A stretch of 64,000 nt of DNA from Candidatus Latescibacterota bacterium (GCA_965200315.1 OZ241362.1:1280001-1344000); one strand, 5' to 3'. Positions 10,292-64,000 are shown, counted from the stretch's first letter. Numbers and translations are program-made. Notes: generated by a model from the letters alone, not told the origin.

Positions 10292-10295
10292 TCCC

Positions 10296-12200: not shown

Positions 12201-13838
12201 CGCGGCTCCACGACGGTCAGGACCTGGTCGGCGGCAAGGTCGCTGAGCACCTGAACCGCGCCGCTGGGCCAGCGCACTTCGAGCCGGTCCACGCGCTCGG
12301 CCCGGCCCAGGCCAAAGTGCAGCCGCAAATCGCTGTGCGACAAATAGCTTCCCCCGCTTTGCACCTCGGCGTGCTGACTCTGCCCGCCGGCCCTAACGAT
12401 CACCCGCGCACCAATCCCGTCGCGGTTGCTCGCCGTGCCCACCGCACACACCAACAGGTAGTGATTGCCGTGGCCGCCGTCGTTGCGCAAGAGGGCTGGC
12501 GGGCCGTTGAGATTGAGGACGAATAAGTCGATGTCGCCATCGCTGTCGTAGTCGGCAAAACTGGTACCGCGACTGACGCGGCGCAAGGCAAAGCCCGGAC
12601 CAGCTTCGGCCGATACCTCCACCAGCCGCCCGCCCCTATTTTCAAACAGGGAGTTGGCTTGTTTGTAGCTGGAATTGACCCTCGGCAGGTCAGCCTGCGG
12701 GTACGTGTGGCCGTTGGCCGCGAAAAGATCGCGGTCGCCGTCGTTGTCGTAGTCGAAAAAGCCCGTGCCCCACGAGACCAATTCGGCCGGTGCCGCCCCG
12801 ATCCCGGCGGCAAAAGACACATCGGCAAAAAAGCCTCCGCCCTCGTTCCTGTACAGCGCGTTGTACTCATCGGCGAAATTGGTGACGAAAAGGTCGAATA
12901 AGCCGTCGTTGTCGTAATCGCCCCAAGCGGCCCCCATGCAGCCTTGCGTCACTCCTTCCCCGCTGTACGCCACCCCGGCCATGAGTGCCTCCTCGGCAAA
13001 GCGACCGTCCCGGCGATTGCGAAAAAGCAGGTTGGGCGTGGAGTCGTTGGCCACGATCACGTCGGGCCACCCGTCGTTGTCAAAGTCGCCGAACAGGGCA
13101 CTCATGCCGTAGAACTTTTCGCCCTGCAGCCCGGCCTGTTGCGTCCACTCGGAGAACGTCCCGTCGCCGTTGTTGCGGTAAAACACATCGGCGGCCGGCA
13201 GCAGGCCCACCGGCCCACAGTACACCTTCACGTTCTTCCACAGGCAGGGGATTGGGGATTCGTAGTCGCGGGAAAAATCTACGTAATTGGCCACGTACAA
13301 ATCCACGTCGCCGTCGCGGTCGTAATCCCCAAAGCTCGCGCCCGTGCCCCACCCGGTATCGCCCACGCCAGCCTCCGTGGTCACATCGGCAAAACGACCC
13401 GCACCGCGATTGCGATATAAAGTATTGCGGCCAAAGTTGGTAACGTACAGGTCTGTGTGCCCGTCGTTGTCGTAATCGGCGGCCGCGCAGCCCATTGACC
13501 AGCTCGTATCGCCCACGCCAGCGGCAACCGTCACATCGGCAAAGCGACCGTTGTCGTTGCGGTAGAGCTGGTTGGCCGGATGCTCGCCCGCGGCAAAGCC
13601 GGCAAAGGAAGAGCCATTGGCCACGTACAAATCCACGTCGCCATCGCGGTCGTAATCGAAAAAGGCGGCACCGCCCATCATCCCCTCGACTATGTAGCTT
13701 TGGTCCGTACCCGAGACATTGGGCTGCATCAGACCAGCGGCCGCCGCCCGATCGACGAATTGCACCGCGAGCGGCTCGCTCCACCCGCTAGCCGCCCCGA
13801 CGAGGCACCCGACCGCGCACCATATCAACGCGCCCACT
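12194..13838 (-). CDS. CRTAC1 family protein (FG-GAP repeats + ASPIC/UnbV domain)
   Basis: Repeated DYDxDGDxDL motifs; C-terminal NRDGIGARV...GGSYLSHSDLRLHFGLG...VRWPSG; start approximate (ORF track extends to 13909). Confidence 0.9.
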
Positions 13839-15654
13839 ACTCCTGCTCCACCACCAAGACCCGATCGACCGGCTCGTTGCGCCGCGCTTGCACACTGCCG
13901 TCGGGCCAAGTGATTTCGATTCGCTCCACCAGTGCGCAGTCGCCCAAGCCAAAGTGCAACCGGCTGTCGCTCGCCGACAAATAGGACCCCCCGCCAATCC
14001 GCTGGCGCGTTTGCACCGCACCGCCGCAGAACACCCGCACCCGCGCCCCAACCGCATCACGGTTTGCCCGCGTCCCCACCAACCGCAGGGACAGCCAGTG
14101 ATGTCTCGACTGCAGTTCGTTGCGGTACAGCCGCGCCGCGCCATCGACGTTGGTCACCAGCACGTCCAAGTCGCCGTCGTTGTCGCAATCGCCATAAGCA
14201 GCCCCGCGCGACACCGCGGACAGCTCAAAGGCCGGGCCGCTGTGGGCCGACACATCGGCGAAAATTCCGCGACCCTTGTTGGCGAAAAGCTGGTTGGGCT
14301 GGGCGTGGCTCAACGCTGAGTCCTGTAAGGCGATGCGGTCGAGGACGTGGCCGTTGGCCACGAACAAATCCACATCGGCGTCGTTGTCGACGTCGGCAAA
14401 AAACGCGCCAAACCCCAGCGGCAGCAAGGTCGGACCGCGCAGGCCAGCTACCTCCGTCGCATCGGCAAAGCGACCGGCGCCCTCGTTGCGGTACAGCGTG
14501 TTGCTCTCGCGGGAAAAGTTGGTCACCAACAGGTCGGCATCCCCATCGGCATCCCCATCGCCGACCGCGATTCCCATGCCGGCCTCGGCTCGGCCGTCGC
14601 CATTGTACGCAGCCCCGGCCGCCAACCCGGACTCGGCAAACGTGCCGTTGCCGCGATTGCGATAGAAAAAATTGCGCGTACCATCATTGGCCACGTACAC
14701 ATCGAGGTGCCCATCGGAGTCGAAATCAGCGGCCGCGACCCCAAGCCCCTTGCCAAAGGGACTAAAGACTCCGCTGGCCTGCGTCACCTCGAAAAAATGC
14801 CCGTCGCCCTCGTTGCGAAATAGCGCGTCTGGCGCGCCGTTGTAGCGCCTCGGGCTGCAATAGGTCCGCTGGCCAGCCGGAACGCGCAAAGAAACTCCGC
14901 TGCTGGCGACCGCGCCGCCGCACAAGCGGTTCGTGTCCGGCGTCAAGTCGAGGTAGTTAGCCACATATAGGTCGAGATCGCCGTCGTTGTCGTAGTCGAA
15001 AAAGGCCGCGCTCGTGCTCCAGTGGAGGTCGGCCACGCCCGCCGCCTGCGCCCGCTCGGCAAAGGTGCCGTCCTCCTGATTGCGATAGAAGGCATTGCGG
15101 CCATAGTTGGTCACATAGAGATCCGAGCGACCGTCGTTGTCGTAATCGCCGACCGCGCACCCCATGCCGTAGCCCAAATCGCCAGTCCCCGTTCGCTCGG
15201 TGACCTCGCGGAAGGCCTGGCCCGTATTTTGGTAGAGGCGATTTTGCGTCTGGCCTACGCCAGGAGCCTGGCGCAACGCCAACACCGAAGTATCCACTCG
15301 GCCGTCGTAGCGCAGGGGCGGCCGGAAGTCCTCGACGACCCAAGTACCCGTCGAATCCCCAGCCACCAGATTAACGGGCACCAAGCGCTCGCGCCATGGC
15401 GACAGGTCAAAACCATCCACTAAATACACGTCCAGCCAGCCGTCGTCGTCGTAGTCGAAAAAGGCCGCGCCAGCCCCCATCGTCTCAATCAGAAAGTAAT
15501 CGCCGCTGGCGCCGCTGGTGTGGCGGAAATCTAGCCCGGCCTCGGTAGCTACCTCGACGAAAAAGGCCGAGCGCTCGGGCGTGGCGCAGCCGCAGCACAG
15601 GAGAAAACAAACCAAAGGCAGGCACAAAGTGGATGGATGGACGTAGCTGTTCAC
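13837..15654 (-). CDS. CRTAC1 family protein (FG-GAP repeats + ASPIC/UnbV), probable lipoprotein
   Basis: DYDNDG motifs; GGGSYLSASDSRLHFGLG; N-terminal LLCCGC. Confidence 0.9.
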   Translation of the reverse strand: MNSYVHPSTLCLPLVCFLLCCGCATPERSAFFVEVATEAGLDFRHTSGASGDYFLIETMGAGAAFFDYDDDGWLDVYLVDGFDLSPWRERLVPVNLVAGDSTGTWVVEDFRPPLRYDGRVDTSVLALRQAPGVGQTQNRLYQNTGQAFREVTERTGTGDLGYGMGCAVGDYDNDGRSDLYVTNYGRNAFYRNQEDGTFAERAQAAGVADLHWSTSAAFFDYDNDGDLDLYVANYLDLTPDTNRLCGGAVASSGVSLRVPAGQRTYCSPRRYNGAPDALFRNEGDGHFFEVTQASGVFSPFGKGLGVAAADFDSDGHLDVYVANDGTRNFFYRNRGNGTFAESGLAAGAAYNGDGRAEAGMGIAVGDGDADGDADLLVTNFSRESNTLYRNEGAGRFADATEVAGLRGPTLLPLGFGAFFADVDNDADVDLFVANGHVLDRIALQDSALSHAQPNQLFANKGRGIFADVSAHSGPAFELSAVSRGAAYGDCDNDGDLDVLVTNVDGAARLYRNELQSRHHWLSLRLVGTRANRDAVGARVRVFCGGAVQTRQRIGGGSYLSASDSRLHFGLGDCALVERIEITWPDGSVQARRNEPVDRVLVVEQE

Positions 15655-15700
15655 TGCAAAAAAATAAGTCTCACCCTAAGTACCCGACAGTAGGGTATTT

Positions 15701-15735
15701 CCTGGGATCGCGGGCAGGATGCCCGCGATCCCAGG
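15701..15735. repeat. Perfect 16-bp inverted repeat (REP-like hairpin)
   Basis: cctgggatcgcgggca-gga-tgcccgcgatcccagg; a second weaker hairpin lies at 15678-15700. Confidence 0.8.
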
Positions 15736-15785
15736 GCGATACCAATAGAGCCAAGTGGATAGTGTCCAGTGTCGAGCCCCGCAGT

Positions 15786-16110
15786 GCGGCCGGATACGAA
15801 ACCGCGCTGATTGGCCGCATGCACTTTGTCGGCCTCGATCAGCGCCACGGCTTTGAGCACCGGCCCATCGGCGAATACAGCGGACGACATAGGGGAATGG
15901 AACGACTTGGGCAACGCTCGCGCCTGCGCCGCCGTGCGGCAAAATTTGCTCAACCAACTCTACGCGGATTGGGATCCCGAGCAGGTGGCCCAGCGCAGCG
16001 CGGAACTGACGCGAGATGCACAAGTGCTGACGGCGTGGGGGCGGGCGGTGCAGCCCCTGCACGAAGACACCCTGCCCGTCGAAGCTGTCGAGGATGTGGT
16101 GCGCTGTTGA
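15786..16110 (+). pseudogene. Internally deleted sulfatase (choline-sulfatase-like) relic
   Basis: One frame gives AAGYETALIGRMHFVGLDQRHGFEHRP (sulfatase N-region). At ~15880 a second frame gives DDIGEWNDLG...LLNQLYADWDPEQV (sulfatase C-terminus). Confidence 0.7.
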
Positions 16111-16120
16111 GGGGCTTGCC

Positions 16121-19100
16121 TCACATATACGACAGAAAGTGCCCGGTCTCGCCCAGTACGCCGTCGATACACAGCCACAATCCGGCCGCGGTCGCCTCGC
16201 CCAAAATCAACCCTAAGAAGAAGGGCTTGGCCCGCTCGTAGAGCGGCATCCCACCCCACTTGACAATGACCAGCTTGAGCGCCCACGCGATGAACACCGA
16301 AAACCACACCTGATTAGCCAGCCAGCCCACGCTGACGATAAACCCCAGCGGGTGCAGCGGCCACCAGTAAAACCGATGATGTCCCCACAACAGCACGGCC
16401 TCGACGAGGCCACCGATGCCAGTAAACAACCAACCGCGCCCGTCGGCTGGCAGCGGATCGACGATCGGCCGCGCCATGTCGGTAAACGTGCGCGTGGCCT
16501 GATGGGTCATAAAAAACGGATGCAAATTGATCCCACCGTACTCATAGCACACCTGAAAAATGATCCACGTCGCCCCGGCCAAACTCACCACCAACGCCAG
16601 CGCCATCCCCCAAAACAGCCGCCTTTTAGAGCCAACCACCGCCTCGGCCAGCTTGAGCGAATTGGCCGCGGCAATCAGCGGAAAGAGCCGCATCTCGGAC
16701 TGCCAGACGTAGGTAAAGGTCAGGGCCGTCAGCCCCTTGGCCCCAATCACCGGTGCGCCAACAGCGGAAATGACGAAAAACGCCGCCACCATCGGCGAGC
16801 GCGCCGTCGCTAGCCCGGCCGTGGCCACCGCCCGCGTGACGAACACGTAGAAGATCAAGCACACCAGCAAAAACAGCGGCAAAACCGCCAGCGGCACCCC
16901 GGACGCCCACAGCCAGACGCCCACGAAGAGCAGGCTGGCCAAAAAGCCAAAGACCGCCACCCGATAGGAAAGCATTTCCCCGGCATCATCCACCGCTGGG
17001 TCGCCGCGCCACGCCTTGCGCCACACCGCCCCTAGATGACGCCGCCCCATCCACAAGGTGTAGCCGACAAAAATCAGACAGGCCCCCATCACCTCGTGCG
17101 TCAGGTCCGCAGTCTGCGAGTAGGAGTAGAGACTCAGCTTTTCGCGGCTGGCAATGCCCAACGAGGCAAATAGCCCCTCTTGCGCCTTGTTGAAGACGTA
17201 GAAAAACCAAATCGAAAAGGAAATGTCGAGGTTGACCAAATAGAAAAAGCCGATCCACGAATACACCCAAGTCAAATGCAGGGACGTCCCTTGGCCGATC
17301 CACGACAGGACCCCAGCCGACTGGATCGGCTTAGGCACCGCCGGGAAGTAGTAGTGCAGCCCCTTGAGCGACAGCAACGCGAACGGCACTGCGAAGCCGA
17401 TCCACAACAGCCGCTGCTTAAAAAGCGGCGTCAGCTTAAACCCCGGCCGGCCCTCCTCCACCATCTTGAGCGGCAGTTGCACCATGGGATAGGCCAGCCG
17501 CTCGTGCTGCGACCACTGCCGGTGCAGAATGGAACTCATGCAGAGCATCATAAAGCTCAGCACCAAAAAGAACACGTACCAATAGCTCAGCGTCTCGGTC
17601 CAAGCCCCCCACGGAATGCCCTCCCCAAGCGGCAGCCCCTCGTGCAAATCGACAATGGCCTGCCGGTCCTGCGGCACCAGCCACGGCGTCACGTGCGAAA
17701 AGAAAATTTCGGCCCAGTTGTTTTCCGGGGTCGCGTAGTAGTACAGCCCGCTGATGATCGGAATTAGGTAGCCGACAAACGCCTGCGTTGGCACGGCCGA
17801 CGCCAACAGCATCATCGCATAAATGAGCACTAAATCGGCCCGCCCCAAGGCGAGGCCGCGGCCCAGTGCCCGCAGCAGGGTATTGACCACCACCACCAAA
17901 ACGAAAAACAGAAAGATCGCCCCGGGCGACGAGCTGTTGAGTGCCATGTACGACCCTTGCAGCATAATTATCGCGTAGGGTGCGCCCACGCCGATGCCCA
18001 AGGCCAACAGGCCCCCCACGGCAAATCCCCGCCAAGTAAAGGACGCGGCCTGTTCCACTGCCGACTGCTCCTCTGTGCGCTCCGCGGTCTGCTCGGCCGC
18101 CAGTGCGCGCGCCGACTCCACGTGCTGGACGCGCTCGGACTCACGCAGCGCGTACCAAATCAACATCTGCTTCCGCAGAGCCTCCACCAGCCGCAGGTTG
18201 AGCCGCTGCCAGTAGTGATGCTCGCCGCTTAACCGGCGCAGCCTGACTCCCATCGCCCGCGCCCGCTGTCCAGCCGGCGCGAACTCCACGACCACCTCTT
18301 GGCTCACCCCCAAGTCGAACGGGGCCAGCCACAGCGCAAACGAGAGGCGATAGCCGTCGGCCTGCGTAACGTGCATATCTTCGACGTAAAAATCCCCCAG
18401 CGTCGCCCGGCCAAAGGCCCCAAAGTAGTTGGCCAAAAAGCCGCACACCCCCTCGACCTCTCCCTCGCCGAGCATGAAGGGGAACTCAAACAACCACTCG
18501 TCGCCGCTGGGCGGGTCCGGCCGCCAGCGCCGTACCACGTCTGGCACGGCCTGCCGCGCCGCCTGCCGCGCCGGATAGATCGTCGATAGCAACACCACCC
18601 CCATCACCGCCAGCGCAGCCCCAATCGCCGCCAGCGACGAGTAGTTCAAGGTAATGCCCTGCAACAGCCCCAACGCCAACAGCACCCGCCCCAACCCCTG
18701 GCCCAGCAAGTAGCCCAACGTCGTCCCCAGCACCGCATAGACGCAGGCTTCGGCCACAAACAGCAGCGCGATGTGCAAGGGGGCCAGCCCCACCGAAGAG
18801 TAGATGCCAATCTCGCGCAGGCGTTCGTACACCGCCCCCATCATCGCATTGAGCACAATGAGCGCGGCCACCAGCGCGGGAATCGCCAGCGCCCCCAGCC
18901 CTTTCACGGCCGTCAGCCCCACTGAACTCAGAGCGGTCACCCTCCCGTCCGGCGAGCCGACAAACAAGGTGGCCGCCACCCTCGTCAGATAATCCTCGAC
19001 CAGCCCCTGCCCGTCGGTCGCCCCCGGAAAGCGCACGGCCACCGAGCGCAAGCTGCCCCCGGCCTCGGCCAGCGTTTGATAGGGCACGAGGACCACGTGG

Positions 19101-22100
19101 TGTGGCTCTAGGTGGATGAAGGGCCGGAGTTCGCGTGGATCCTCCTCGCCGGCAATATCCACGTCCTGCGCCGCCCCTAGCTGGAGCACCTCTGCGCCCG
19201 ATAGGACAAAATCGGCCGGCATCAGGCTCTCGTCGTCGAGGTCGCGCAGTTCACCCAACTGCTCTGGATCGGCAATCCCGCGCACCTCCAGCGCACGTCC
19301 AAACACCTCGATCCGGTCCCCAACCCCAATACCCAAAGCCGCGGCCATGTCCAACGGCAGGATGCAGGTAGCCTCGTCATCCGCGGTAAAAAACGATCCG
19401 GCCACCAAACTCTTATCTACCGCGGTGATTTGCGCTTCCTCCGGCGTCAGGCCCAACAAGCCCGTAGCCCGCACCGCCTTCCCCGCCGCGGCCACCGCAA
19501 TCCAGCTCCCCTTGCCGCCTTCGGCCGCGTACCAACCGCGCCGCCCCATCCAGCCGCTGCCGCCAAAGTGCGATTCGGCGTAGTCGAGCGCTTCCGGCGT
19601 CAGGCGCTCCCAGCCGCGATCGCGGATGAGGATCCCAGGGTACGCCCCGGCGTGGGGCAGCCGGAAACTCGCGTAGCGGATTTGCTGTTCAAACGAGGTA
19701 AACGAGAGCAGGGTAAACGTCAAAAGCGTCAGGGTCGCCAGCGTCAGACCAGTGCGCAACGGCCGCCGCCGCATGTTGGAAATCCCCAGCATGAAGGCCG
19801 CATAACTCGCGCTCAAGCGGCTCAGATCCTCGGCGTGGACCCGTGTCTGCTGGCTCTGGTGCTGGGCCATGACGCGGTTGAACCGACCTACCAGCATACA
19901 GAGCACCAAGGCCGCCATCGCCATGATAGCAAACGCCAACAGCACCACCAGCGGCTCGGCCAGCTCAAAGGCCGGATGCACCTGCGCCAAAATCAGCCAA
20001 ATCGCCAGCAATAACAGCCCAAAGCCAGCGAGCTGCCGGCGAATATCGGCCGCGGCAAACAAGAGCCGCTCCCCTAAAAAGGCGGCCGGCAACAACAGCG
20101 CCATAAAGAAAATCACCCCTTCGAGGACGTCGTTGAGCGTCGCCAAGACCTCTGGATAGGCCCGCGTCTCCAAGCCCAGCGCCTTGCGGCTCCACGCCAC
20201 GTACTCATCCCACTTTAGCTGCTCGGCCGCTGATTCCGCTTCGGCTATGGCCGCGGCCGCCTGCTCGTGTAGGCGCGTCAACCGCTGATTTTCAATGCCG
20301 TGCTCCTTGAGCATCCCCAGCCGCACCTCATCCAAGTTCCACACGTCTCGCGCCGCCTGTAGCGTCGCAGCCCCAAATCCCTCTTCGGTCAGCAAAAACC
20401 CCGCACCCCGCGCCTCGCTCTCGCTTTGGCTGCCCTCGCTGTTGAGCAGCAAAAGTTGGCCGTCCAAAATCACTTTGACGCGATCGTCGGCCGCAGCATC
20501 AGCCGGCCCGTAGATTACCCCCACCGAGCCGATGCTGCTCTTACCTAAGGAGTACCCGTACTGACCCGGTTCGCCCTCGTCCGCCGACAGCACTTTTACT
20601 TTGGTCAACGCGCGTAAAAAGCGCGGCTCGACCAAGCCGTACAAGGGCCGACCCACTCCGGGAAAGAGCACGGCGATCTGCTCGTTTTGCAGCCAGCGCA
20701 CATTCTTGGCCAAGCGGCCATCTGACCTCGGTTTCCCGTGGTGCGCTTGCGCACGGGTGCTCAAATCCACGACGTGGGTAATCGCCCCCCGCTCGGCGTC
20801 TAGCGCCGCCACCGCCAGTGGATACGTCCCCTGCACCAGCCCGGGGACCCGCGCCACCCCGATGGCATCCGTGAGAAAGTAGCGCGTGTTACGCACTCCT
20901 TTGCGCTCTTCCTCCTCCACCTGTACCGCCACCAGCGCCCCAGCCACCGGCCGGTCTGGCACCTGACTGCGCCGGGGGAAGGTCCGCGCTTTGACCCGCA
21001 AATCCCGCAGCCGATCTTCCAACGCCGCCGCGAGCCGCTCGCGCCCAGCCAACAGCACTGTATCGGCCAACGCATAAGCCAGCAGATCGGCCACCAACGC
21101 CGCCTGCTTCTCCACATTATCCCACGCCACGCGCTCGCCCGTGTCCTGCGGCAAATCCAGCGCAAAACGGGCGTCGCCTACCGTAGCCAGCGTCAGCGAC
21201 GGGAATCCCGCTTCGAGCACCAACTCCCCGTCCGCGGCCAAACCCCCGGGCATGTAGCTATCCCAATCCATCCCCCGAATTGGGCTGATGCCATTGGCCA
21301 CGGCCTCGGCGCGGCCTAGTGCCTCCGCGTACTCGGCAAAGCGACGGCCAAAGGGCACGAAAAACCGCTTGAGCGCGTAGCTATCCGTGTTGTTCCACAG
21401 CACCACCCGCTCGCCGTGGCTGGACAAATCGAGACCAATGAACAGGCCGATATCCAGCGGCTCGGCGAGCCGGGCCGCGTAGTGCTCTTGGCGGCGAGCG
21501 TGCCGGTCGAGAAAGGCGACCATGCCCTGCCGCCCCAAGAAGTGGGCCCCTAGCGCGGCGAGTACCACCGTGTGCGCTGGCGGGTTCGCTTGCAAGCGAG
21601 CAGCCACCTCCAACAGCACCGCTACACTCACGGCCGCCTCGGCTCCTGGTGCCCGCGCTGGCACCACGGATGGCGCGTCGTAATACGCATGGACGAGCAC
21701 GGTCTCGTCCCGCAAAGTCCCCGCATGCCGCCCCGGCACCACGGCCCACACGTTGTACGCCATCCGCTCCTGCCAATCCATCCGCCCCCACAGCTCCACC
21801 TCCACTTCTCCACCCACCAACCGCCGCCGCAACCGCTCTCCAGCGGTCCTCTCCACCCAAAACCGCGGCACATCCAACGGCGCCCGCACGTACTTGCCCT
21901 GCGCCTGCTGCGTGGTAGCTGAATCCGCCGCCACAAACACCACCGCCCGTGCTCCCAACGACGCGGCCTTCAGCCAATTGTCCCCACTGGCAAAGTCCAG
22001 CAGCACCACCCGCCCAGCCACCTCCTGCCCATTAAAATCGCCCCAATCCCCATCGCCGCCCCAAATCGCCGGGATCCGCAACCCCTCCGGCGGCACGGTC

Positions 22101-22393
22101 GAAGTCCGCACCCCATTCGGCCACACCGCGTACAAGGCGACCGACTCATCTTCCCATTCCAACCGCCCACCCTTGTCGATGGGCACCACCACCGCAAAGG
22201 AGTCGCGTCGCGTCGCTAGCCCCAACGCCTGCAACTGCCCCTCCACGTATTCCGCTGCTTGATTGCTCCCCGGATAGCCGGCCACCCGCGACCCTAGCGA
22301 GGACAAATGCTCCACGACCGCTCGCGGCCCGGCCGAAGCCGCCCCCGGGGTCATGGCAACGGCATATAACAAGGCTATAATCAGCGCAGTCAT
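16121..22393 (-). CDS. Giant fusion: PA + degenerate M28/nicastrin-like domain, FtsX/MacB-type permease, DUF6785/6784-like multi-TM transporter
   Basis: Likely start MTALIIALL with signal peptide; SRVAGYPG and AYYD..APGAE (M28-like); VYERLREIGIYSSVGLAP and LSTIYPARQAA (FtsX); QWSQHERLAYP and WWPLHPLG..PFFLGLILGE (DUF6785/6784-like). Confidence 0.8.
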   Translation of the reverse strand: MTALIIALLYAVAMTPGAASAGPRAVVEHLSSLGSRVAGYPGSNQAAEYVEGQLQALGLATRRDSFAVVVPIDKGGRLEWEDESVALYAVWPNGVRTSTVPPEGLRIPAIWGGDGDWGDFNGQEVAGRVVLLDFASGDNWLKAASLGARAVVFVAADSATTQQAQGKYVRAPLDVPRFWVERTAGERLRRRLVGGEVEVELWGRMDWQERMAYNVWAVVPGRHAGTLRDETVLVHAYYDAPSVVPARAPGAEAAVSVAVLLEVAARLQANPPAHTVVLAALGAHFLGRQGMVAFLDRHARRQEHYAARLAEPLDIGLFIGLDLSSHGERVVLWNNTDSYALKRFFVPFGRRFAEYAEALGRAEAVANGISPIRGMDWDSYMPGGLAADGELVLEAGFPSLTLATVGDARFALDLPQDTGERVAWDNVEKQAALVADLLAYALADTVLLAGRERLAAALEDRLRDLRVKARTFPRRSQVPDRPVAGALVAVQVEEEERKGVRNTRYFLTDAIGVARVPGLVQGTYPLAVAALDAERGAITHVVDLSTRAQAHHGKPRSDGRLAKNVRWLQNEQIAVLFPGVGRPLYGLVEPRFLRALTKVKVLSADEGEPGQYGYSLGKSSIGSVGVIYGPADAAADDRVKVILDGQLLLLNSEGSQSESEARGAGFLLTEEGFGAATLQAARDVWNLDEVRLGMLKEHGIENQRLTRLHEQAAAAIAEAESAAEQLKWDEYVAWSRKALGLETRAYPEVLATLNDVLEGVIFFMALLLPAAFLGERLLFAAADIRRQLAGFGLLLLAIWLILAQVHPAFELAEPLVVLLAFAIMAMAALVLCMLVGRFNRVMAQHQSQQTRVHAEDLSRLSASYAAFMLGISNMRRRPLRTGLTLATLTLLTFTLLSFTSFEQQIRYASFRLPHAGAYPGILIRDRGWERLTPEALDYAESHFGGSGWMGRRGWYAAEGGKGSWIAVAAAGKAVRATGLLGLTPEEAQITAVDKSLVAGSFFTADDEATCILPLDMAAALGIGVGDRIEVFGRALEVRGIADPEQLGELRDLDDESLMPADFVLSGAEVLQLGAAQDVDIAGEEDPRELRPFIHLEPHHVVLVPYQTLAEAGGSLRSVAVRFPGATDGQGLVEDYLTRVAATLFVGSPDGRVTALSSVGLTAVKGLGALAIPALVAALIVLNAMMGAVYERLREIGIYSSVGLAPLHIALLFVAEACVYAVLGTTLGYLLGQGLGRVLLALGLLQGITLNYSSLAAIGAALAVMGVVLLSTIYPARQAARQAVPDVVRRWRPDPPSGDEWLFEFPFMLGEGEVEGVCGFLANYFGAFGRATLGDFYVEDMHVTQADGYRLSFALWLAPFDLGVSQEVVVEFAPAGQRARAMGVRLRRLSGEHHYWQRLNLRLVEALRKQMLIWYALRESERVQHVESARALAAEQTAERTEEQSAVEQAASFTWRGFAVGGLLALGIGVGAPYAIIMLQGSYMALNSSSPGAIFLFFVLVVVVNTLLRALGRGLALGRADLVLIYAMMLLASAVPTQAFVGYLIPIISGLYYYATPENNWAEIFFSHVTPWLVPQDRQAIVDLHEGLPLGEGIPWGAWTETLSYWYVFFLVLSFMMLCMSSILHRQWSQHERLAYPMVQLPLKMVEEGRPGFKLTPLFKQRLLWIGFAVPFALLSLKGLHYYFPAVPKPIQSAGVLSWIGQGTSLHLTWVYSWIGFFYLVNLDISFSIWFFYVFNKAQEGLFASLGIASREKLSLYSYSQTADLTHEVMGACLIFVGYTLWMGRRHLGAVWRKAWRGDPAVDDAGEMLSYRVAVFGFLASLLFVGVWLWASGVPLAVLPLFLLVCLIFYVFVTRAVATAGLATARSPMVAAFFVISAVGAPVIGAKGLTALTFTYVWQSEMRLFPLIAAANSLKLAEAVVGSKRRLFWGMALALVVSLAGATWIIFQVCYEYGGINLHPFFMTHQATRTFTDMARPIVDPLPADGRGWLFTGIGGLVEAVLLWGHHRFYWWPLHPLGFIVSVGWLANQVWFSVFIAWALKLVIVKWGGMPLYERAKPFFLGLILGEATAAGLWLCIDGVLGETGHFLSYM

Positions 22394-22555
22394 AGCGTCC
22401 CAATATCGGCACCCAGCATTCCGTCTAGCAAGCAAACCAACGCGGCTTTGCCGGGGGCGGAACACTTCCGCGGCAATCACCTTGTCACGCCCCTTCTGTA
22501 ACTGATGTTACGCACAGGTATGGGGTGAGGGAGGCTTCGACGCCGCGTTGCGGCA

Positions 22556-22618
22556 CTCAGCATGACAGGGCACGGGAAAAAGCCTACCCTTGTCATGCTG
22601 AGCAAAGCGAAGCATCTC
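22556..22618. repeat. REP-like palindromic element
   Basis: ctcagcatgaca (22556-67) and tgtcatgctgag (22591-602) are inverted; followed by caaagcgaagcatctc, typical of TGTCATGCTGAG-type intergenic repeats. Confidence 0.65.
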
Positions 22619-22706
22619 AGACCCAAGGCTTATGCGTAACGACACTTCTGTACGTGGAACTTCAGCTATCGGCGAGATGTTCAAACGCAATTATAAGGAG
22701 GGCTTC

Positions 22707-23936
22707 ATGCTGTACCGCATCGCCGCTATCGGCTTCATTTTTGCCTGCACGAGTGTCGCTTGGATCATCTTGGCCGAGGTCGTCTCGCACCGCACCCACC
22801 AGCAAGACACCAAGCTCAAAGCCGCCGTGGGCCAACTGTGGGGCACTTCCCAATCCCAGCGCGCCCCACTGCTGTACTGGACCACCGAGGAACAAACCCC
22901 TGACGGCCAAGAGACAGAACACTCCAAAGAGCAGCGTCACTTCCTGCCCCTAGAGGCCAGCCGCCTACAAGTCGATCTACACCTTGAACACCGCCGCAAG
23001 GGGCTGCTGTGGCACGCCACCTACCAAGTGGCACTGGACGCCGCCTATACTGCGACCAACGCGACCGACCGTCCCCTCGACCTGACCTTCGATCTGGCCC
23101 TGCCTACTTCCCAAGCGGTGTACGATGATTTCACCCTGTCGATCGACGGCCAACCCATCGCTGCGCTGCCGCTGGCCGAAGGGCACTTGCAACAGCCGTT
23201 GCATTTAGCGCCGGGCCAGAGCCGCCAAATTCGCCTTTCCTACCAATCGCAGGGTTTAGACGAATGGTGGTATCGCTTCGGCGACCACGTCGCGCAAGTC
23301 TCCGATTTCGAGCTAATCATGTACACTGATTTCGACGCCATCGACTTCCCGCACGAAAGCCTGTCGCCCACCCACAAGGAGCGCACTGCCGATGGCTGGC
23401 GGCTCACTTGGCAGTACGACCGGCTGCTCACTGGAGCCTCCCTCGGCATGGTCATGCCCGCCCGCCGCAATCCAGGTCCTTGGGTACAAGACGTAACCCT
23501 AGCCGCGCCCATATCCCTCTTTCTCTTTTTCTTTGTTCTCTTTGTTTTTGCCGCAGTCAAAGGCATCGATATCCATCCGATGAATTACTTCTTCATCGGC
23601 GCGGCTTTTTTCAGCTTTCACTTGCTGTTGGCCTATCTGGCCGACCACTTGCTCATCCACTACGCCTTTTTGCTGGCCGCGGCCGTGTCTGTTTTCTTGG
23701 TCGTCTCCTACATGCGGCTCGTGGTCGGCCTGCGGTTGGCCTTGGTGGAGATAGGCTTAGCCCAATTCATTTACTTGGTGCTCTTCTCCTACACCTTCTT
23801 CTTCGTCGGCTATACCGGCTTGGCCATTACCATCCTGTGCATTATCACGCTCTTCGCCGCCATGCAGTTTACCGGCCGGATGGACTGGTCGGCCGTGTTT
23901 GCCCGGCCGCCAGCCACTCCTCCAAAGTCCGCCTAG
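22707..23936 (+). CDS. CreD-like inner membrane protein
   Basis: AAGGAG RBS; N-terminal TM, periplasmic domain, then IHPMNYFFIGAAFFSFHLLLAYLADH and several C-terminal TMs. Confidence 0.7.
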   Translation: MLYRIAAIGFIFACTSVAWIILAEVVSHRTHQQDTKLKAAVGQLWGTSQSQRAPLLYWTTEEQTPDGQETEHSKEQRHFLPLEASRLQVDLHLEHRRKGLLWHATYQVALDAAYTATNATDRPLDLTFDLALPTSQAVYDDFTLSIDGQPIAALPLAEGHLQQPLHLAPGQSRQIRLSYQSQGLDEWWYRFGDHVAQVSDFELIMYTDFDAIDFPHESLSPTHKERTADGWRLTWQYDRLLTGASLGMVMPARRNPGPWVQDVTLAAPISLFLFFFVLFVFAAVKGIDIHPMNYFFIGAAFFSFHLLLAYLADHLLIHYAFLLAAAVSVFLVVSYMRLVVGLRLALVEIGLAQFIYLVLFSYTFFFVGYTGLAITILCIITLFAAMQFTGRMDWSAVFARPPATPPKSA

Positions 23937-24814
23937 TACCCCTGCAGCCGCGCCGGTACTCCCACCGGCTCCCCATGGCGACACACCACCGGAAAGTGCG
24001 GGCCGGCCGCGGCCATCGGCGCATGGTCGGGCAAATCGACGAACTGCTTCATCAGGTGCTCGCCGCTTTGGTCGAAGCGCGCTGCGCCGGTCATATAGTG
24101 GATGGCAATGGCGCGCCGGGGCCGCGGCGACCGATTGAAGGGCGAGCCGTGCCAAGTCAGGGAATGGTGGAAAGAAACCTCCCCGCGCATCACCGGACAC
24201 GGCCGCGCTTCCACCGTGCGGATCTCGGCGTCGGCTGGCGGGGTAAAGCCCTGTAAGTCCTTGAAGTTTTCCAACAGCGACAAATCCCCCTGCGTACGCA
24301 AAAATGCAATCTGATTGCCCCACTTGTGGCTGCCGGGCACCATCCACATGCAGCCATTTTCCTCGGTCGCATCGTCCAAGGGGATCCACGCCGAGACCGG
24401 CGTCATCGGCTTGATAATCGGCCACAAGGGGGCATCTTGGTGCCAGTGAGTCGAGCCGCCGTAGCGTGCGGGTTTGTACTGAATCTGGTCGTGCCAAACT
24501 TGGAGGTCGGCATGGCCGGTAAGCTGGCTGATACCCCGTACGATAGCTGAGTGGTACATCAGCCGCTCCCAAGCGGGTGCAGCCTCCCAGATATTGACGA
24601 TCTGCCACACGGGATGCTCGCTGACGTTGCCCCCGCCGGCTAGGTCGCGGAAGGATACCGGCTGCGGCTCGCCAGGGGCAAAGCCGTCCGGGCCTTTGGC
24701 CAAAATTTCGTCGAGCGCGGCGCTCAATTCGCCGAGCGCGTCGTCGGAGAGCACGCGGCCGCCGTTGAGAAAGCCGTTGCGGTGGAATTCGTCGATCTGT
24801 GCCTCTGTAAGCAT
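23933..24814 (-). CDS. Phytanoyl-CoA dioxygenase (PhyH) family protein
   Basis: WHQD facial motif, AWIPLDDATEENGCMWMVPGSH, FHHSLTWHGS. Confidence 0.9.
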   Translation of the reverse strand: MLTEAQIDEFHRNGFLNGGRVLSDDALGELSAALDEILAKGPDGFAPGEPQPVSFRDLAGGGNVSEHPVWQIVNIWEAAPAWERLMYHSAIVRGISQLTGHADLQVWHDQIQYKPARYGGSTHWHQDAPLWPIIKPMTPVSAWIPLDDATEENGCMWMVPGSHKWGNQIAFLRTQGDLSLLENFKDLQGFTPPADAEIRTVEARPCPVMRGEVSFHHSLTWHGSPFNRSPRPRRAIAIHYMTGAARFDQSGEHLMKQFVDLPDHAPMAAAGPHFPVVCRHGEPVGVPARLQGY

Positions 24815-24888: not shown

Positions 24889-27369
24889 CTACTGCATGCG
24901 CCGGAGCAACTCGCCGCGCGCCTCGTTGAACAGGCCAATCAGCCGCTGGCGGATCGCCTCGTCGCGGAAGACGCCGATCCTTTCGGCCCAAGCAATACCA
25001 CCCTCCATGTGCGTCAGCAGATAATGGCCCTCGGCCGGCGCAAACGCGCAGCGCCGCCCCACGTCGATATAGACCGGCGAAGAATGGGCCATCACCGGCC
25101 CGGCGTCCGTGTAATGCGGACCCCAGCAACGGGCCGCGACCCAGCAGGAAGACTCGGCCCTGAGCTTGAACTTCAGTTCGATCTGCTGGGCACCGGGCGC
25201 GGCGAGCTCGCGCGCAACCGACTCGCCATTGCAAATAAGCTCCAGCCCAGTAAGCGGCCAGACGCTTTCCGCGTTTGCCACCACCTCGACCGTGCCGCCA
25301 TTGCCGGGCAGGTGGATTTCCTCGCCCATCTCCCGCCCCTCGACCTTTAGGTCGATCATCGCGCCGGTGCTGGCAAACGTCTGGCCGCGCCGCACAGCTT
25401 GGCACCAATTGTCAAAGGTAAACTCCTCGCCGTCGCGCAGCTTGACATAGGTGCGCGAGCCGCCCAAAATGCGGCCGTTGGACATCTTGTCGGTGCCGCC
25501 GACAATCGGCAGCTTTTGGCCCACGTTGAGCCAGCGGTAGTAGCCCCGCTCGGCCGAACTGATCGGCTCGCCCTCCCAAATCCAGCACATCTCGCCAGCG
25601 TCGGCGTGGCCCAAGACGATGTTGGCCGCGTTCTCAAAGTCGGGCAGCGGCAGATGCGGCATAATGACCAGCCCGCCCTGTTTTTTGCACTCCTCGGCCC
25701 AGTCGGCCATCAGCGCATCCACCGAGCCGCCGACCCAATCCTCATTGGCCCCGCCGGTACACATAGGCGCGACCAGTTCCTTGAGGCCGAGCAAGCTGAT
25801 GTGCCCGAGCACGTGCTGCCGGTTCTCCTGGCTGACCCAAACCAAGTGCTCGGCGCTGCTGGTCGGTGCCAAGCCGCCGGTAAACTCCTCCCACGAGGTA
25901 AACAGCCGACCCCACTGGCTGGCCAACAAATGCACCACATTGAGGTCTTCGCCAGCGGCCTCTAGGTGGGACGACTGGGAGGAAAGAAAATGCACGTGGG
26001 TATCCCCCGAATAGTAGCCGCGCTGCTTCATGTCAAAGGCGCGTTTGACCTTGAGGGTTAGCGCGTTCTGTCCGGGCTTGATTTCAACTTGCTGGCGCAA
26101 TGGCTGGTACTCAAAGCCGCGCACCACCTCGGCGTACACCGGGCCGATGGGCAAGTCGATCTGGCAGGTGCCGTCGATATATGCGTAGGGCACACCTCCG
26201 GTCTTGCAGTCGCCGCCCATGTCCTCAAACCAAGCAATGTTGACGTCGGCTTGGTGGCCGTGCGGCGCTAGATAGGCTCCGTGCTCAGTGCGAAAGTGGA
26301 CGCGGGTTCCCACGGGCAGGCCAGTATCCGCGTCCTCAACCCGCACGTGGACCCACTGCTTGCCAGCCGGCGCGACGACCTCGATTTGTACCTTGCCTTG
26401 AGCGACCTTCTTCTTGTTGAGCACATCGCCCCAACAAATGCGCTCTTCGTCGTCGCCCGTCTTAATGGCGAGTTGCCCTTGGGTTGATCCGTGGATTTCC
26501 AGATAGCCACCGGCGACCGTCTCTTGGCCACCGCGGCCCCAGCCCGCTTCCTCGGAGGTGAGGAAATCTGCACTCGGCACCCAGAGCTGATCTTGGCGCA
26601 CAATTTCGCCGCGCTCCATTGCCACTTCGGGCGTTCCTGCGGCATCAACCCGCAGCACCACCTCCTGCCGCGCCGGCCAAGCAAAGGGGTCGCGCTCCTC
26701 GTGGCAGAGCGTAATGCCAGCCAACGCCAGTGCCGTAGGGCCAGCCGCCGACACCGCAATCGCCGCAATCTCCTGGTCGGGCGCGGGATTTTCCCAGTCG
26801 TAGAGCCACCAACCCTCGAGGTCGCTGCCCTCGCACGTGAAGGCCCCGGTCTGCACCATGCCATAGCTGTACTCCCGGCTTTCTAGCGGCACCGAGTAGA
26901 AATGGCGGCAGTTGCGACAGAGAAAGGGATGATGCCCCCAAGGCACCTGCACATCGTGGATTTCAAAGCGGCGGCGCAGCGGCTGCTCAACCGAGCTGCC
27001 GTCGGCATAGAGGACGCGATAGGTTCCTATCTCCTCGCCCGTGCCTTCAACCGTGGCCCATTCCCCCGGCACCGGCGCACAAGCGTGGGCATAGAGGATG
27101 CGCCGCGCCGTGGCATTTATCGCAATCTCCGCCGATGCGCTCACCCTAGCCTCTTGCGCCACCAGCACCACGGCCCGGTCAGCACCTGTGGCCGCCAAAC
27201 TAAAGGGCACACCCCAAAACTGCTGCTCGCCCCAAGGCAGCCCCACGAGCGGCGTATTGTCGGGCGCGTCGTCGGGCGCTGGCCAGAGCTTGCCGCCTTC
27301 GGACTCAACATTGCCGGTACTGGCGTTATAGGCCGCGCTCAAATCTAACGGCACAAATGGATTGCTCAT
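24889..27369 (-). CDS. CehA/McbA-like metallohydrolase (PHP-like C-terminal domain)
   Basis: GDTHVHFL, QENRQHVLGHI, GGTDKMS, AHSSPVY. Confidence 0.75.
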   Translation of the reverse strand: MSNPFVPLDLSAAYNASTGNVESEGGKLWPAPDDAPDNTPLVGLPWGEQQFWGVPFSLAATGADRAVVLVAQEARVSASAEIAINATARRILYAHACAPVPGEWATVEGTGEEIGTYRVLYADGSSVEQPLRRRFEIHDVQVPWGHHPFLCRNCRHFYSVPLESREYSYGMVQTGAFTCEGSDLEGWWLYDWENPAPDQEIAAIAVSAAGPTALALAGITLCHEERDPFAWPARQEVVLRVDAAGTPEVAMERGEIVRQDQLWVPSADFLTSEEAGWGRGGQETVAGGYLEIHGSTQGQLAIKTGDDEERICWGDVLNKKKVAQGKVQIEVVAPAGKQWVHVRVEDADTGLPVGTRVHFRTEHGAYLAPHGHQADVNIAWFEDMGGDCKTGGVPYAYIDGTCQIDLPIGPVYAEVVRGFEYQPLRQQVEIKPGQNALTLKVKRAFDMKQRGYYSGDTHVHFLSSQSSHLEAAGEDLNVVHLLASQWGRLFTSWEEFTGGLAPTSSAEHLVWVSQENRQHVLGHISLLGLKELVAPMCTGGANEDWVGGSVDALMADWAEECKKQGGLVIMPHLPLPDFENAANIVLGHADAGEMCWIWEGEPISSAERGYYRWLNVGQKLPIVGGTDKMSNGRILGGSRTYVKLRDGEEFTFDNWCQAVRRGQTFASTGAMIDLKVEGREMGEEIHLPGNGGTVEVVANAESVWPLTGLELICNGESVARELAAPGAQQIELKFKLRAESSCWVAARCWGPHYTDAGPVMAHSSPVYIDVGRRCAFAPAEGHYLLTHMEGGIAWAERIGVFRDEAIRQRLIGLFNEARGELLRRMQ

Positions 27370-45149: not shown

Positions 45150-45154
45150 GGCAC

Positions 45155-58471: not shown

Positions 58472-58692
58472 ATATCTATCGCGTTCGTCTTTTTGCTTGC
58501 CATTTGAAAGTATAGGACAACGGGGGCGAGACAATACTTAGGGACGGGATGCCACTTGCTAGCGCACACTCTAATAGGCTTAACGCCCCTATAAGCTTGA
58601 CAGCAAGCGGGCAAACCCTATCAATTGAGACAGTCTCATCGCGCAACGCGGGTCAATTCCACAACCAAGCTGCACCGGCAACCTCAAAATCT

Positions 58693-59612: not shown

Positions 59613-59714
59613 GCATCCATCCTTTTTATATTTTTTTGCTGGCAAGGCCAAGATAAAGGAAATTGGGCTTTGCACCTTTACCGATAAAGTAGCATCTAAT
59701 CTAAGGAACAGATA

Positions 59715-62385: not shown

Positions 62386-64000
62386 TCAGCTAACCCCCAC
62401 CTCCGTCCCCTGTGCCAACTTCTCGCCCTCGAGCAAGTACTCCTCCCGCACCTCGGGCGCAATCGTCCGCCAGACCAAAAACCGCTTGCGCAGCACGTTG
62501 AGGAAGCTGGTGTTGAGCCGCTGCCAGCTCACCACATCGCCGCTTATGCGCTGCAAGTGCATCTCGATGCGGTAAATGCCTGGGATGTCGTCGGTCGGCA
62601 AAGTGCGCAGGAAAACTCGCTGGCTCACTCCCAAGTCGTAGGGCGCGAGCCACACCATCAGTTCCAGCAAATAGACCGGCTGCGCACCGCCCTTCTCCAA
62701 GTGGAAATCCACGCCCTCGGTCATAAAGTCGCCCACCGATCCCTCGCCATACGACGAGAAGACCCGGTGCAGGTACGCGCACGAGCCTAAAGCATCGCCC
62801 TTGCCCAGCGTAAAGGGAAAGTCAAAACGCCAATCGTCGCCATCGGGCGGGGGGAACTCCCAGCGCCGCGTCACGTCGGGCACGGCCATGGCCGCGGCCT
62901 TGCGCGCCGGATACAGGGTCGAGAGCACCACCACCACCATCACCACCAAGGTCGAGAAAATCGCCGACAGCGACGAGTAGTTGAGGAACATCCCGCCCAA
63001 CAGCGCGTAGTGCGCCAAAAGCAGCGTCGTCGTCTGCCCTACCAAATAGCCCAGCACCGCGCCGACGATGGCAAACACGAGGGCCTCGGCGATGAAGAGC
63101 GCGGCAATGTGGCTCGGTGCCAGCCCCACCGACGAATACACCCCGATCTCGCCGGAGCGCTCGTACACGGCCCCGAGCATGGTGTTGAGCACAATAAGTG
63201 AGGCGATCAACAAGGGCACGAAGAGATTGCCAATCCCGGCCAAGGAAGCCGATCCCATAGACGTGTACACCCGCACGCGGTCGCCGGCCCCGACAAAGAG
63301 CGGCACGGCCACCCGCGACACGAACTCCTCCACCTCGGCTAGCAAGGTCTCCCGGTCGGCGAATCCAGCGATGGCAACCGAGCGCAGCGTACCGCCCAAA
63401 TCGACGACCTGCTGGTAGGGCAAGAACGCCACGTTGTTGGCCATCAGATGGGTAAAGGTCTCAATCGCGGCCGTGTCCATCAGGCGCGGGTCCAAGTCGG
63501 CCATTTGCTCCATCTTCTTGGCCTCGGCGACCGTGTCCACCGGCATCGGACTCTCGTTGTCCAAGTCGCGCAGTCCGTCGATTACCTCGCCGTCGATTAG
63601 GCCAATGACCCGATAGGAACGCCCCATCAGCCATATCCGGGCCGCGCCCACATCCGCCGGGCCAATGCCCAAAATCTCCGCCATGGCCGCCGGCAGGATG
63701 CACACATCGCGCTCGCCGTCCGCAAACCAGCGGCTCTCCGGCCCCACCAACAGCTCTTCTAATCCCATCAGCGCACCCTCGCCCGCGGTCACCCCGAGGA
63801 GGGCTGAGGCAAAGCTCTTCTTCTGCGCCGGCTTGTGCTCAATGTCGATATAGGCCCGCTCGCCAATGACCTTGGACGTAATCCACGATCTCGGCAGTAC
63901 CTGCGCTTGGTCGCCAAACGCGCTTTTTGCATAGTCGAGCACGGATAGCTGCAAGCCCTTCCAGCCGCGATCGCGCAGCAGCGCACCCTCGTAGCTGGGC
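62386..64000 (-). CDS. FtsX/MacB-type permease, paralog of the central part of 16121-22393; 5' end off window
   Basis: YEGALLRDRGW, VYERSGEIGVYSSVGLAP, LNYSSLSA, AVPDVTRRW, WLAPYDLGVSQ; stops without a DUF6785-like domain. Confidence 0.85.
   Translation of the reverse strand, partial: PSYEGALLRDRGWKGLQLSVLDYAKSAFGDQAQVLPRSWITSKVIGERAYIDIEHKPAQKKSFASALLGVTAGEGALMGLEELLVGPESRWFADGERDVCILPAAMAEILGIGPADVGAARIWLMGRSYRVIGLIDGEVIDGLRDLDNESPMPVDTVAEAKKMEQMADLDPRLMDTAAIETFTHLMANNVAFLPYQQVVDLGGTLRSVAIAGFADRETLLAEVEEFVSRVAVPLFVGAGDRVRVYTSMGSASLAGIGNLFVPLLIASLIVLNTMLGAVYERSGEIGVYSSVGLAPSHIAALFIAEALVFAIVGAVLGYLVGQTTTLLLAHYALLGGMFLNYSSLSAIFSTLVVMVVVVLSTLYPARKAAAMAVPDVTRRWEFPPPDGDDWRFDFPFTLGKGDALGSCAYLHRVFSSYGEGSVGDFMTEGVDFHLEKGGAQPVYLLELMVWLAPYDLGVSQRVFLRTLPTDDIPGIYRIEMHLQRISGDVVSWQRLNTSFLNVLRKRFLVWRTIAPEVREEYLLEGEKLAQGTEVGVS

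Follow-up and report, generated by a model that had tools for sequence, protein, structure and literature searches.

The subject of this analysis is a very large gene on the minus strand of a 64,000-nucleotide stretch of DNA (hereafter the window; GCA_965200315.1 OZ241362.1:1280001-1344000) from an uncultured Latescibacterota bacterium. The gene is one uninterrupted open reading frame (ORF) with five Pfam domains, and its product is, in one chain, a genuine form of a membrane system that is conserved, and usually encoded by several genes, in Latescibacterota and a few neighbouring uncultured phyla. An initial annotation, made from the sequence alone, had described a single ORF joining three modules, namely a pseudo-peptidase, an FtsX/MacB permease and a DUF6785-like transporter. 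The ORF list, the translation and the Pfam domains bore out the continuous ORF, and all three module calls held when the domains were mapped as that annotation had suggested; its extent was also right, with the minus strand left unstated. The longest form of the ORF spans 16121..22480 on the minus strand, with a GTG start and 2,119 amino acids (aa). A start at the ATG at 22393 gives 2,090 aa and the coordinates of the initial annotation, and was favoured because the ORFs of two relatives (L002 and L007) begin exactly where residue 1 of the window protein aligns. Residues are numbered from this ATG throughout. The parts of the gene, and a partial paralog in the same window, are as follows.

16121..22393, minus strand: fused M28-like / MacB-FtsX / DUF6785-DUF6784 coding sequence, 2,090 aa plus stop (ORF translation, Pfam, full-length relatives)
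22331..22393, minus strand: hydrophobic N-terminus, a signal or anchor, about aa 1-21, with Ala-Ser-Ala at its end (hydropathy segment 1-22, translation)
21089..22327, minus strand: PA-plus-M28-like extracytoplasmic domain, about aa 23-435, canonical catalytic residues gone (Pfam, family profile)
20150..21088, minus strand: rest of the ectodomain, aa 436-748, beta-rich and helical (conserved in the family alignment)
19868..20149, minus strand: extra three-helix membrane bundle before the FtsX module, about aa 749-842 (hydropathy, AlphaFold2)
18530..19867, minus strand: MacB/FtsX-type module, aa 843-1288 (Pfam, PDB sequence matches, Foldseek)
18101..18529, minus strand: cytoplasmic C-terminal alpha/beta domain, aa 1289-1431, about 145 aa (AlphaFold2; aligned in the paralog)
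18041-18100, minus strand: acidic Ala/Glu/Gln-rich linker at the fusion joint, aa 1432-1451 (located in the translation; the paralog ends within it)
16124..18040, minus strand: polytopic DUF6785 plus DUF6784 domain, aa 1452-2090 (Pfam, AlphaFold2, Foldseek)
62386..63999, minus strand: partial unfused paralog, MacB/FtsX module plus C-terminal domain (43% identity; Pfam FtsX E 3e-14)

The N-terminal signal may be cleaved after its Ala-Ser-Ala motif. Downstream of it, the Pfam model Peptidase_M28 matched aa 214-435 weakly (E 1.9e-5, 24.9 bits against a cut-off of 21.3). A phmmer search of the ectodomain (aa 1-699) against PDB returned no matches, and a family profile was needed to detect the homology. 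Among PDB sequences, this profile matched the PA-containing M28 aminopeptidases 2ek8 (E 2.4e-19) and YwaD of B. subtilis (6hc6, E 1e-17), Vibrio-type leucyl aminopeptidases, and the non-catalytic relatives nicalin (1e-7), transferrin receptor (7e-5) and nicastrin (1.5e-4). For aa 436-748, searches of Pfam, NCBIfam and PDB sequences gave no match. The M28 active-site positions were then compared in 75 family members by alignment to 2ek8 and 2anp, with what we take to be the ligand and catalytic roles (His, Asp, Glu, Asp and His, plus the catalytic Glu) and the numbering of the Vibrio-type leucyl aminopeptidase. The equivalent of the ligand His97 was Tyr in 62 sequences, Pro in 6, Phe in 5 and His in 2; the bridging Asp117 fell in an alignment gap, where the window protein has Ala; the catalytic Glu151 was replaced by His in 69 and Asp in 6; and the ligand Glu152 by Phe in 50, His in 13, Ser in 6, Tyr in 5 and Gly in 1. 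D239 and D417 were found in 75/75 sequences. Because the replacement residues are themselves conserved, the pocket looks repurposed, not decayed. Membership of the M28 fold is supported by the profile matches, and, as far as the alignment tells, the canonical zinc ligands and catalytic Glu have been lost across the family. The replacement of the canonical His, Asp and Glu-Glu positions agrees with the pseudo-peptidase call of the initial annotation.

The extra membrane bundle corresponds to AlphaFold2 helices at 728-778, 784-805 and 814-850, with E775 and H806 present in 75/75 sequences. It is followed by the MacB/FtsX-type module, which is laid out as transmembrane helix 1 (TM1), a periplasmic core domain (about 906-1169) and TM2-TM4, with an ER..EIG coupling-helix motif at 1188-1196. 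Pfam FtsX matched aa 1170-1281 (E 1.2e-12), and MacB_PCD matched aa 970-1061 just below its cut-off of 27 (25.8 bits, E 1.5e-5); the matches among PDB sequences were MacB, YtrF, LolC and LolF. An N-terminal NMRRRxLRT motif and the ER..EIG motif align with YtrF and MacB, and the coupling-helix residues E1190, R1191 and I1195 were invariant in 75/75 sequences. In known type VII systems, this motif contacts and docks the nucleotide-binding domain (NBD). The AlphaFold2 model of aa 700-1431 shows, in order, three helices, TM1, a beta-rich periplasmic domain, TM2-TM4 and an alpha/beta domain (about 1299-1430). Foldseek matched this model to MacB (5gko, E 1.6e-14) and also to LolCDE, HrtBA, YtrEF, YbbAP, BceAB and BceABS, with low global TM-scores of 0.2-0.4, and matched the periplasmic domain to that of MacB (3ftj) with TMt 0.60 and a root-mean-square deviation of 3.5. 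The four-helix FtsX domain, the TM1-TM2 periplasmic core and the coupling helix of a type VII permease are all present, and the MacB/FtsX call stands on Pfam, PDB sequence and Foldseek matches (MacB, LolCDE, HrtBA and YtrEF). The cytoplasmic C-terminal domain is present in unfused relatives and in the window paralog as well. It had no match in Pfam or NCBIfam, and it was left without a family because its Atlas scores were 0.86 or lower.

The last module was assigned directly by Pfam, as the initial annotation had foreseen, with DUF6785 at aa 1453-1953 (E 1.5e-121) and DUF6784 at aa 1988-2083 (E 2.6e-28), both above the gathering score. Both models were matched by 63/63 DUF6785 relatives tested. 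With an alignment of 105 sequences, AlphaFold2 produced a model with a predicted local distance difference test score (pLDDT) of 95.8 and a predicted TM-score (pTM) of 0.95. When this model was compared with PDB using Foldseek, only barley Yellow Stripe 1 (YS1) was retrieved (7wsr, E 3.9e-7; 7wst, E 5.1e-7), with probability 1.00, TMq 0.65, TMt 0.68 and 13% identity; the runner-up had E 0.04 and TM 0.09. As YS1 entries are the sole significant PDB matches, the predicted model very probably represents an OPT/Yellow-Stripe (OPT/YSL)-type fold. Pfam OPT is carried by 11% of the members of one archaeal DUF6785 cluster in the Atlas. PMC9691689 describes YS1 as a homodimeric, proton-coupled, elevator-like importer of the OPT family, and according to PMC8048996 peptide uptake by P. 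gingivalis depends in part on a bacterial OPT. By analogy, proton-coupled uptake of peptides or metal chelates, a trait of the OPT superfamily, may be predicted for DUF6785. A complex prediction of aa 1150-1431 (TM2-TM4 and the C-terminal domain) with DUF6785/6784 scored 0.01 and was counted neither for nor against an interaction.

To place the gene among its relatives, a species-representative genome collection was scanned with the M28-FtsX alignment. At least 550 stretches were confirmed, of which we retained the best 80 with flanks of 10 kb; their six-frame ORFs were searched with our own hidden Markov models and tallied. Nearly all of these loci come from Latescibacterota or from metagenome-assembled genomes labelled Gemmatimonadota, together with three from Omnitrophota and one from Nitrospirota. 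Two neighbour families recurred, DUF6785 and a polytopic family of about 800 aa that we call C1, in the following arrangements.

Fused, as in the window: 11/80 loci
DUF6785 directly upstream and C1 directly downstream: 28/80 loci
DUF6785 upstream only: 8/80 loci
DUF6785 directly downstream only (L021, L026, L032): 3/80 loci
Tandem pairs (L058): 1/80 loci
C1 downstream only: 24/80 loci
UPF0182 membrane protein downstream only (L048:14711-17545, L064, L066, L077): 4/80 loci
None (L067, uninformative, with flanks of about 300 nt): 1/80 loci

DUF6785 was therefore fused or adjacent in 51/80 loci, which is a lower bound because several of the loci with C1 only have truncated upstream flanks; C1 lay directly downstream in 52/80, and one or the other family was found in 75/80. 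The neighbouring genes share a strand, and overlaps of a few bases between them are frequent (in L010, DUF6785 at 7827-9980 and M28-FtsX at 9977-14404). Gene order varies among upstream, downstream and fused while adjacency is kept, and in the usual unfused arrangement DUF6785 is a separate gene upstream, not downstream. The initial annotation had read the fusion as Rosetta-stone evidence that the two membrane families act together, and had proposed co-occurrence of the modules in other genomes as a test. The inference withstood this test, since DUF6785 lies directly beside the M28-FtsX gene in a further 40/80 loci in addition to the 11 fused ones. As relatives nearly always keep the modules as neighbouring genes, they probably act together, and on this gene-order evidence we hold a functional partnership to be highly probable.

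The fused form itself recurs. With the whole protein as the query, a word-indexed search retrieved relatives that are full-length (2,086-2,143 aa, 55-92% identity) and a larger unfused set of about 1,466 aa at 53% identity or less, and a search for long proteins (>1,120 aa) with a DUF6785/6784 part found 35 proteins, 35/35 of which also had Pfam FtsX. The most distant fused proteins (P0273-P0280) are colinear over about 2,100 aa at 48-51% identity, and in one fused relative (P0024) the linker has another length and sequence. The 11 fused loci belong to 11 different records, 7 of them chromosome-level. In a DUF6785 tree, a quick maximum-likelihood tree with a midpoint root only, the window and the 11 fused loci (12 rows) formed one clade with SH-aLRT support of 100; a single old, maintained fusion fits, because the fused DUF6785 domains group together in this way. 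At least five chromosomes carry both a fused and an unfused system, so the two forms are paralogous systems within one genome. The window contains such an unfused paralog, 43% identical to aa 917-1441, whose 5' end is cut by the window edge. It terminates inside the linker, and the alignment thus upholds the earlier remark that the paralog stops where the linker begins.

An artefact of assembly, frameshift or a lost stop, which the initial annotation had named as a danger, or a gene in decay would be an alternative. The DUF part of L026 and L032 does lie in another frame than the M28-FtsX ORF, and such joints can look ambiguous. Against this, the fused ORF is intact in 11 independent records, including the 7 chromosome-level ones, there are 35 fused protein clusters, and colinearity persists at 48-51% identity. 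An artefact is already refuted by this recurrence and we consider it extremely improbable, while the fused gene is almost certainly real.

Some unfused joints have features of their own. In L026:9947-16482 and L032:9904-16530, the ORF of the downstream DUF6785 stays open, in the other frame, across the entire 4.4-kb M28-FtsX gene, and in L021:14393-14596 a 68-aa ORF matching C1 profile positions 102-148 lies between the M28-FtsX and DUF6785 genes. Frameshift, replacement or recombination at the joint could have left such traces.

No Pfam or NCBIfam model matched the C1 representative (L033:4906-7317; another member is L010:14401-17619). Pfam OPT was matched by 2/27 C1 proteins, and some members have a PDZ domain. 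When the C1 and DUF6785 profiles were compared using hhalign, they aligned over 200 columns with 74% probability and E 2.8e-5 and shared an ERLPFP-like motif. With moderate confidence, C1 is a putative second, divergent OPT-like partner. Six large window ORFs, four of them without a Pfam match, were tested for C1 and gave no match. The UPF0182 protein of L048 (944 aa, Pfam E 8e-288) stands in place of an OPT-like gene, and 4/63 DUF6785 proteins had weak Pfam UPF0182 matches. UPF0182 was rejected as a relative of DUF6785 or C1, as hhalign gave this protein probabilities of 0.8% and 0.1% against the two profiles, respectively.

Two further observations concern the C1 position. A clade of loci at 42% identity (L052:17056-21253 and about 13-20 similar loci) has a conserved gene run after C1, consisting of a protein of about 335 aa without a Pfam match (20 loci), a PqqD-like protein (13), a 200-aa protein without a Pfam match (15) and a RecD2-type helicase (19), and it has a Hpre_diP_synt_I-like protein and a NusG_II-domain protein just upstream. 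In the window, the place where many relatives carry the C1 gene, directly downstream of the paralog, is occupied by a stretch of low guanine-plus-cytosine content (58549-62340; 0.47-0.57, compared with about 0.62 in the rest). This stretch has the look of an insertion, a mobile or defence islet, and contains the following genes.

58549-59220: Schlafen/AlbA_2 protein
59715-61598: DNA methylase with a PKD domain
61573-62340: PIN-like protein

The initial annotation had noted that no ABC ATPase is adjacent to the fused gene, and this is correct within the window, where the nearest ABC_tran ORFs (39325-40851 and 44142-45461) lie beside permeases of their own, of sugar type and FecCD type. Among the 80 loci, an ABC NBD-like ORF was present within 10 kb in only 10. 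Five of these ten ORFs encode one kind of protein, 260 aa long, with LolD, FtsE, MacB and YbbA as its best NCBIfam matches. The gene for this LolD/FtsE-type NBD lies 0.6-0.8 kb upstream of DUF6785, and on its strand, in L034, L041 and L042, and it follows a separate small FtsX ORF in L037 and L080. The cognate ATPase expected of a type VII permease is thus missing from the window and, for most loci, from the 10-kb flanks, with a plausibly co-oriented gene in 3/80. It is plausible that the ATPase is encoded elsewhere in the genome.

The fused clade has a gene context of its own. Near the fused gene, the window has the following genes.

23933-24814: PhyH-type dioxygenase gene
24889-27369 and 27439-29922: two tandem proteins of about 826 aa with a C-terminal CehA/McbA-family metallohydrolase domain

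The tandem proteins have an N-terminal half of about 430 aa without a family. They share 41% identity, and the first shares 72% with the copy in L027. Genes for a CehA/McbA-like hydrolase (about 830 aa) and PhyH lie upstream in 7/11 fused loci, and FG-GAP/ASPIC genes lie downstream in 10/11. In the distant fused locus L027, those genes all point the same way with short gaps between them, as does one for a beta-propeller protein with a type IX secretion tail. Such a context suggests a substrate-utilisation locus, which would favour import.

Elsewhere in the window, large secreted proteins with C-terminal FlgD_ig, CHU_C or Por_Secre_tail domains are encoded at 4753-7008, 10164-12200 and 48079-49488; these domains are type IX sorting signals and fit an FCB-group-like secretion system in this genome. 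On the plus strand, and so antisense to the fused gene, an ORF of 202 aa (15633-16241) runs over the 3' end of that gene; it matches choline-sulfatase over 27 residues (E 3.7e-7) and probably either arose by chance or is a remnant. The fused gene and a CreD-like gene (22632-23936) diverge from an intergenic region with a 15-nt inverted repeat (22556-22602; one mismatch, 17-nt spacer), which occurs once in the window and could be a regulator site or a hairpin.

We tentatively read the protein as part of an uptake complex for peptide-like solutes, in which a tethered pseudo-peptidase receptor on a MacB-type scaffold would feed OPT-like importers; we rate this statement as a whole at slightly below even odds. 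Outside the cytoplasm, the inactive peptidase ectodomain would be the tethered receptor, binding a small organic ligand, peptide-like or otherwise; the stalk and the periplasmic domain of MacB type would hold this ligand and present it at the membrane surface, and an OPT-like elevator transporter would carry it into the cell on the proton gradient. The partners would be one or two transporters of the OPT/Yellow-Stripe fold, namely DUF6785/6784 (here the C-terminal fusion) and, in most relatives, also C1. If the MacB-type module is powered at all, it may be driven by a LolD/FtsE-type ATPase encoded elsewhere, which we propose because the NBD-docking motif is invariant. Nutrient acquisition fits this picture, since a genome has several paralogous systems and conserved, cytoplasmic-looking hydrolase and dioxygenase genes lie nearby. 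Import as the direction of transport is mildly favoured, while a receptor hand-off with a peptide-like substrate is a doubtful proposal.

Several observations weigh against this uptake reading. Pfam OPT (PF03169) did not match the window protein, nor any of the 63 DUF6785 proteins at E up to 1, and the DUF6785 profile had no match among PDB sequences; the OPT assignment of DUF6785 comes from its predicted fold and not from its sequence. The hhalign link between C1 and DUF6785 is weak at 74%, and the C1 profile, too, had no match among PDB sequences. DUF6785 may mostly work without an FtsX partner, as almost all of its 5,227 representatives at E up to 1e-3 are stand-alone, with just two fused proteins, P0024 (2,120 aa) and the truncated P0122, among the best 150. 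In the ectodomain, the residue comparison covers all positions but the Asp179 equivalent, and the His256 equivalent was Asp in 62, Asn in 12 and Ala in 1 of the 75 sequences at a place where the alignment is weak; with its conserved replacement residues, the pocket might even so coordinate a metal and have some catalytic activity. For aa 700-1431, the AlphaFold2 model is of moderate quality only (pLDDT 74.4, pTM 0.45). No OPT-like gene lies downstream of the window paralog, whose upstream side is beyond the window. The invariant NBD-docking motif sits oddly with the lack of a nearby ATPase. Finally, the locus fractions, 51/80 and 75/80 included, are not independent counts, because many loci are close relatives and only the best 80 of at least 550 were used.

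Other roles for the same partnership must be weighed. In two-step export, the OPT-like protein would export a compound, the MacB module would expel it from the inner membrane or periplasm, and the ectodomain would dock on an envelope partner; the substrates of MacB-type pumps and LolCDE are likewise found in the periplasm or the outer leaflet. MacB, LolCDE and HrtBA, to which the fold was matched, all act outward or extract from the membrane, and the invariant docking motif together with the LolD/FtsE-type NBD upstream in 3 loci would suit such a role. However, the 30 commonest flanking gene clusters, four of them without any Pfam match, gave no Pfam match to a membrane-fusion protein or an outer-membrane channel, and the several paralogous systems per genome beside hydrolase and dioxygenase genes look like catabolic loci. 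The only solved structure of the OPT fold is, moreover, that of an importer according to PMC9691689, and we regard export as unlikely. A sensing or regulatory module is likewise improbable in our view. Here M28-FtsX would sense the ligand or the activity of the transporter and gate the OPT-like part, in the manner of BceAB-type flux sensors, as the Foldseek matches to BceAB and BceABS, the large, conserved, non-catalytic ectodomain pocket and the position of the cytoplasmic domain at the fusion joint might suggest; yet 1,430 aa is large for a gate, and no histidine kinase or response regulator is consistently adjacent, with one HisKA/HATPase cluster found in 8/80 loci about 7.7 kb away.

It is also conceivable, and in our judgement quite unlikely, that the OPT-like transporter is a motor whose proton- or substrate-driven elevator moves replace ATP hydrolysis and drive the extracytoplasmic work of the MacB module. 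An OPT-like gene is adjacent or fused in 75/80 loci, compared to an ATPase within 10 kb in 10/80, as such a motor would predict. Nevertheless, the ER..EIG motif, the NBD contact of known type VII systems, is invariant, ATPase genes of such systems can be encoded elsewhere, and we know of no precedent for an OPT-like transporter as the motor of a MacB-type module. There is, in addition, a small chance that these proteins form a hybrid machine class, in which a MacB/FtsX mechanotransducer is mechanically coupled to an OPT-fold transporter instead of an ABC ATPase. Either proton-driven elevator movements would then power the extracytoplasmic work of the dead peptidase, or the ectodomain and MacB module would be the first tethered 'binding protein' known for an OPT-type importer. 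Compared with these alternatives, we retain uptake of peptide-like solutes as our working explanation.

In the open-access literature, we found no paper on DUF6785, DUF6784, PF20581 or PF20580, and, among the papers listed, no relevant one on the combination of FtsX, OPT, M28 and Latescibacteria. Databases already list the proteins, under the names M28 family peptidase or FtsX-like permease, and both DUFs are in Pfam. All parts are of known kinds; the novelty lies in their conserved coupling, which brings a type VII ABC-like permease together with an OPT-fold carrier and a pseudo-peptidase, and in the predicted fold of DUF6785/6784 and the C1 family. To our knowledge, modules of the MacB/FtsX type have been described only together with ABC ATPases, and OPT/YSL transporters only as secondary carriers that need no partner; if the two are indeed paired in a conserved way, at times within one polypeptide, and topped by an inactive peptidase-like receptor, the result would be a new transporter architecture. 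The predicted fold gives a first functional handle on DUF6785/DUF6784, of which bacteria and archaea have thousands of stand-alone members, and C1 is tentatively tied to the OPT-like superfamily on a weak match. A multi-copy uptake system may matter for the feeding of uncultured Latescibacterota, and the fused protein offers a natural single-chain construct for structural work.

Comparison with known systems places the window protein between several of them. With type VII transporters and mechanotransducers (MacB, LolCDE, FtsEX, HrtBA, YtrEF, YbbAP and BceAB), it shares the four-helix FtsX domain and the TM1-TM2 periplasmic core. The window family differs from them in having no fused ATPase and mostly none nearby (10/80 loci), in adding an N-terminal ectodomain of about 720 aa, three helices and a 145-aa C-terminal cytoplasmic domain, and in being partnered or fused with a secondary-transporter fold. 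In FtsEX-EnvC, an FtsX permease controls a catalytically dead metallopeptidase-fold regulator in cell division together with the FtsE ATPase, and EnvC is a separate protein of the LytM (M23) fold. The pairing of an FtsX-type module with an inactive metallopeptidase-like extracytoplasmic domain is common to both; the window family, however, carries its dead domain, of the M28 fold, on the same chain as the permease, has several paralogs in a genome and is associated with transporters. The PA-plus-M28 architecture is shared, by profile search, with the PA-domain M28 aminopeptidases (2ek8 and YwaD, 6hc6), whereas the catalytic Glu and zinc ligands of the window family are replaced. Nicastrin, nicalin and transferrin receptor follow a similar non-enzymatic receptor logic, although the window family is no closer to them in sequence than to true peptidases. 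Finally, YS1 (7wsr, 7wst) and DUF6785/6784 share their overall fold at 13% identity, without recognition by Pfam OPT or by the profile search of PDB; while YS1 is a homodimer on its own, as described in PMC9691689, DUF6785 is here tied to a MacB-type protein.

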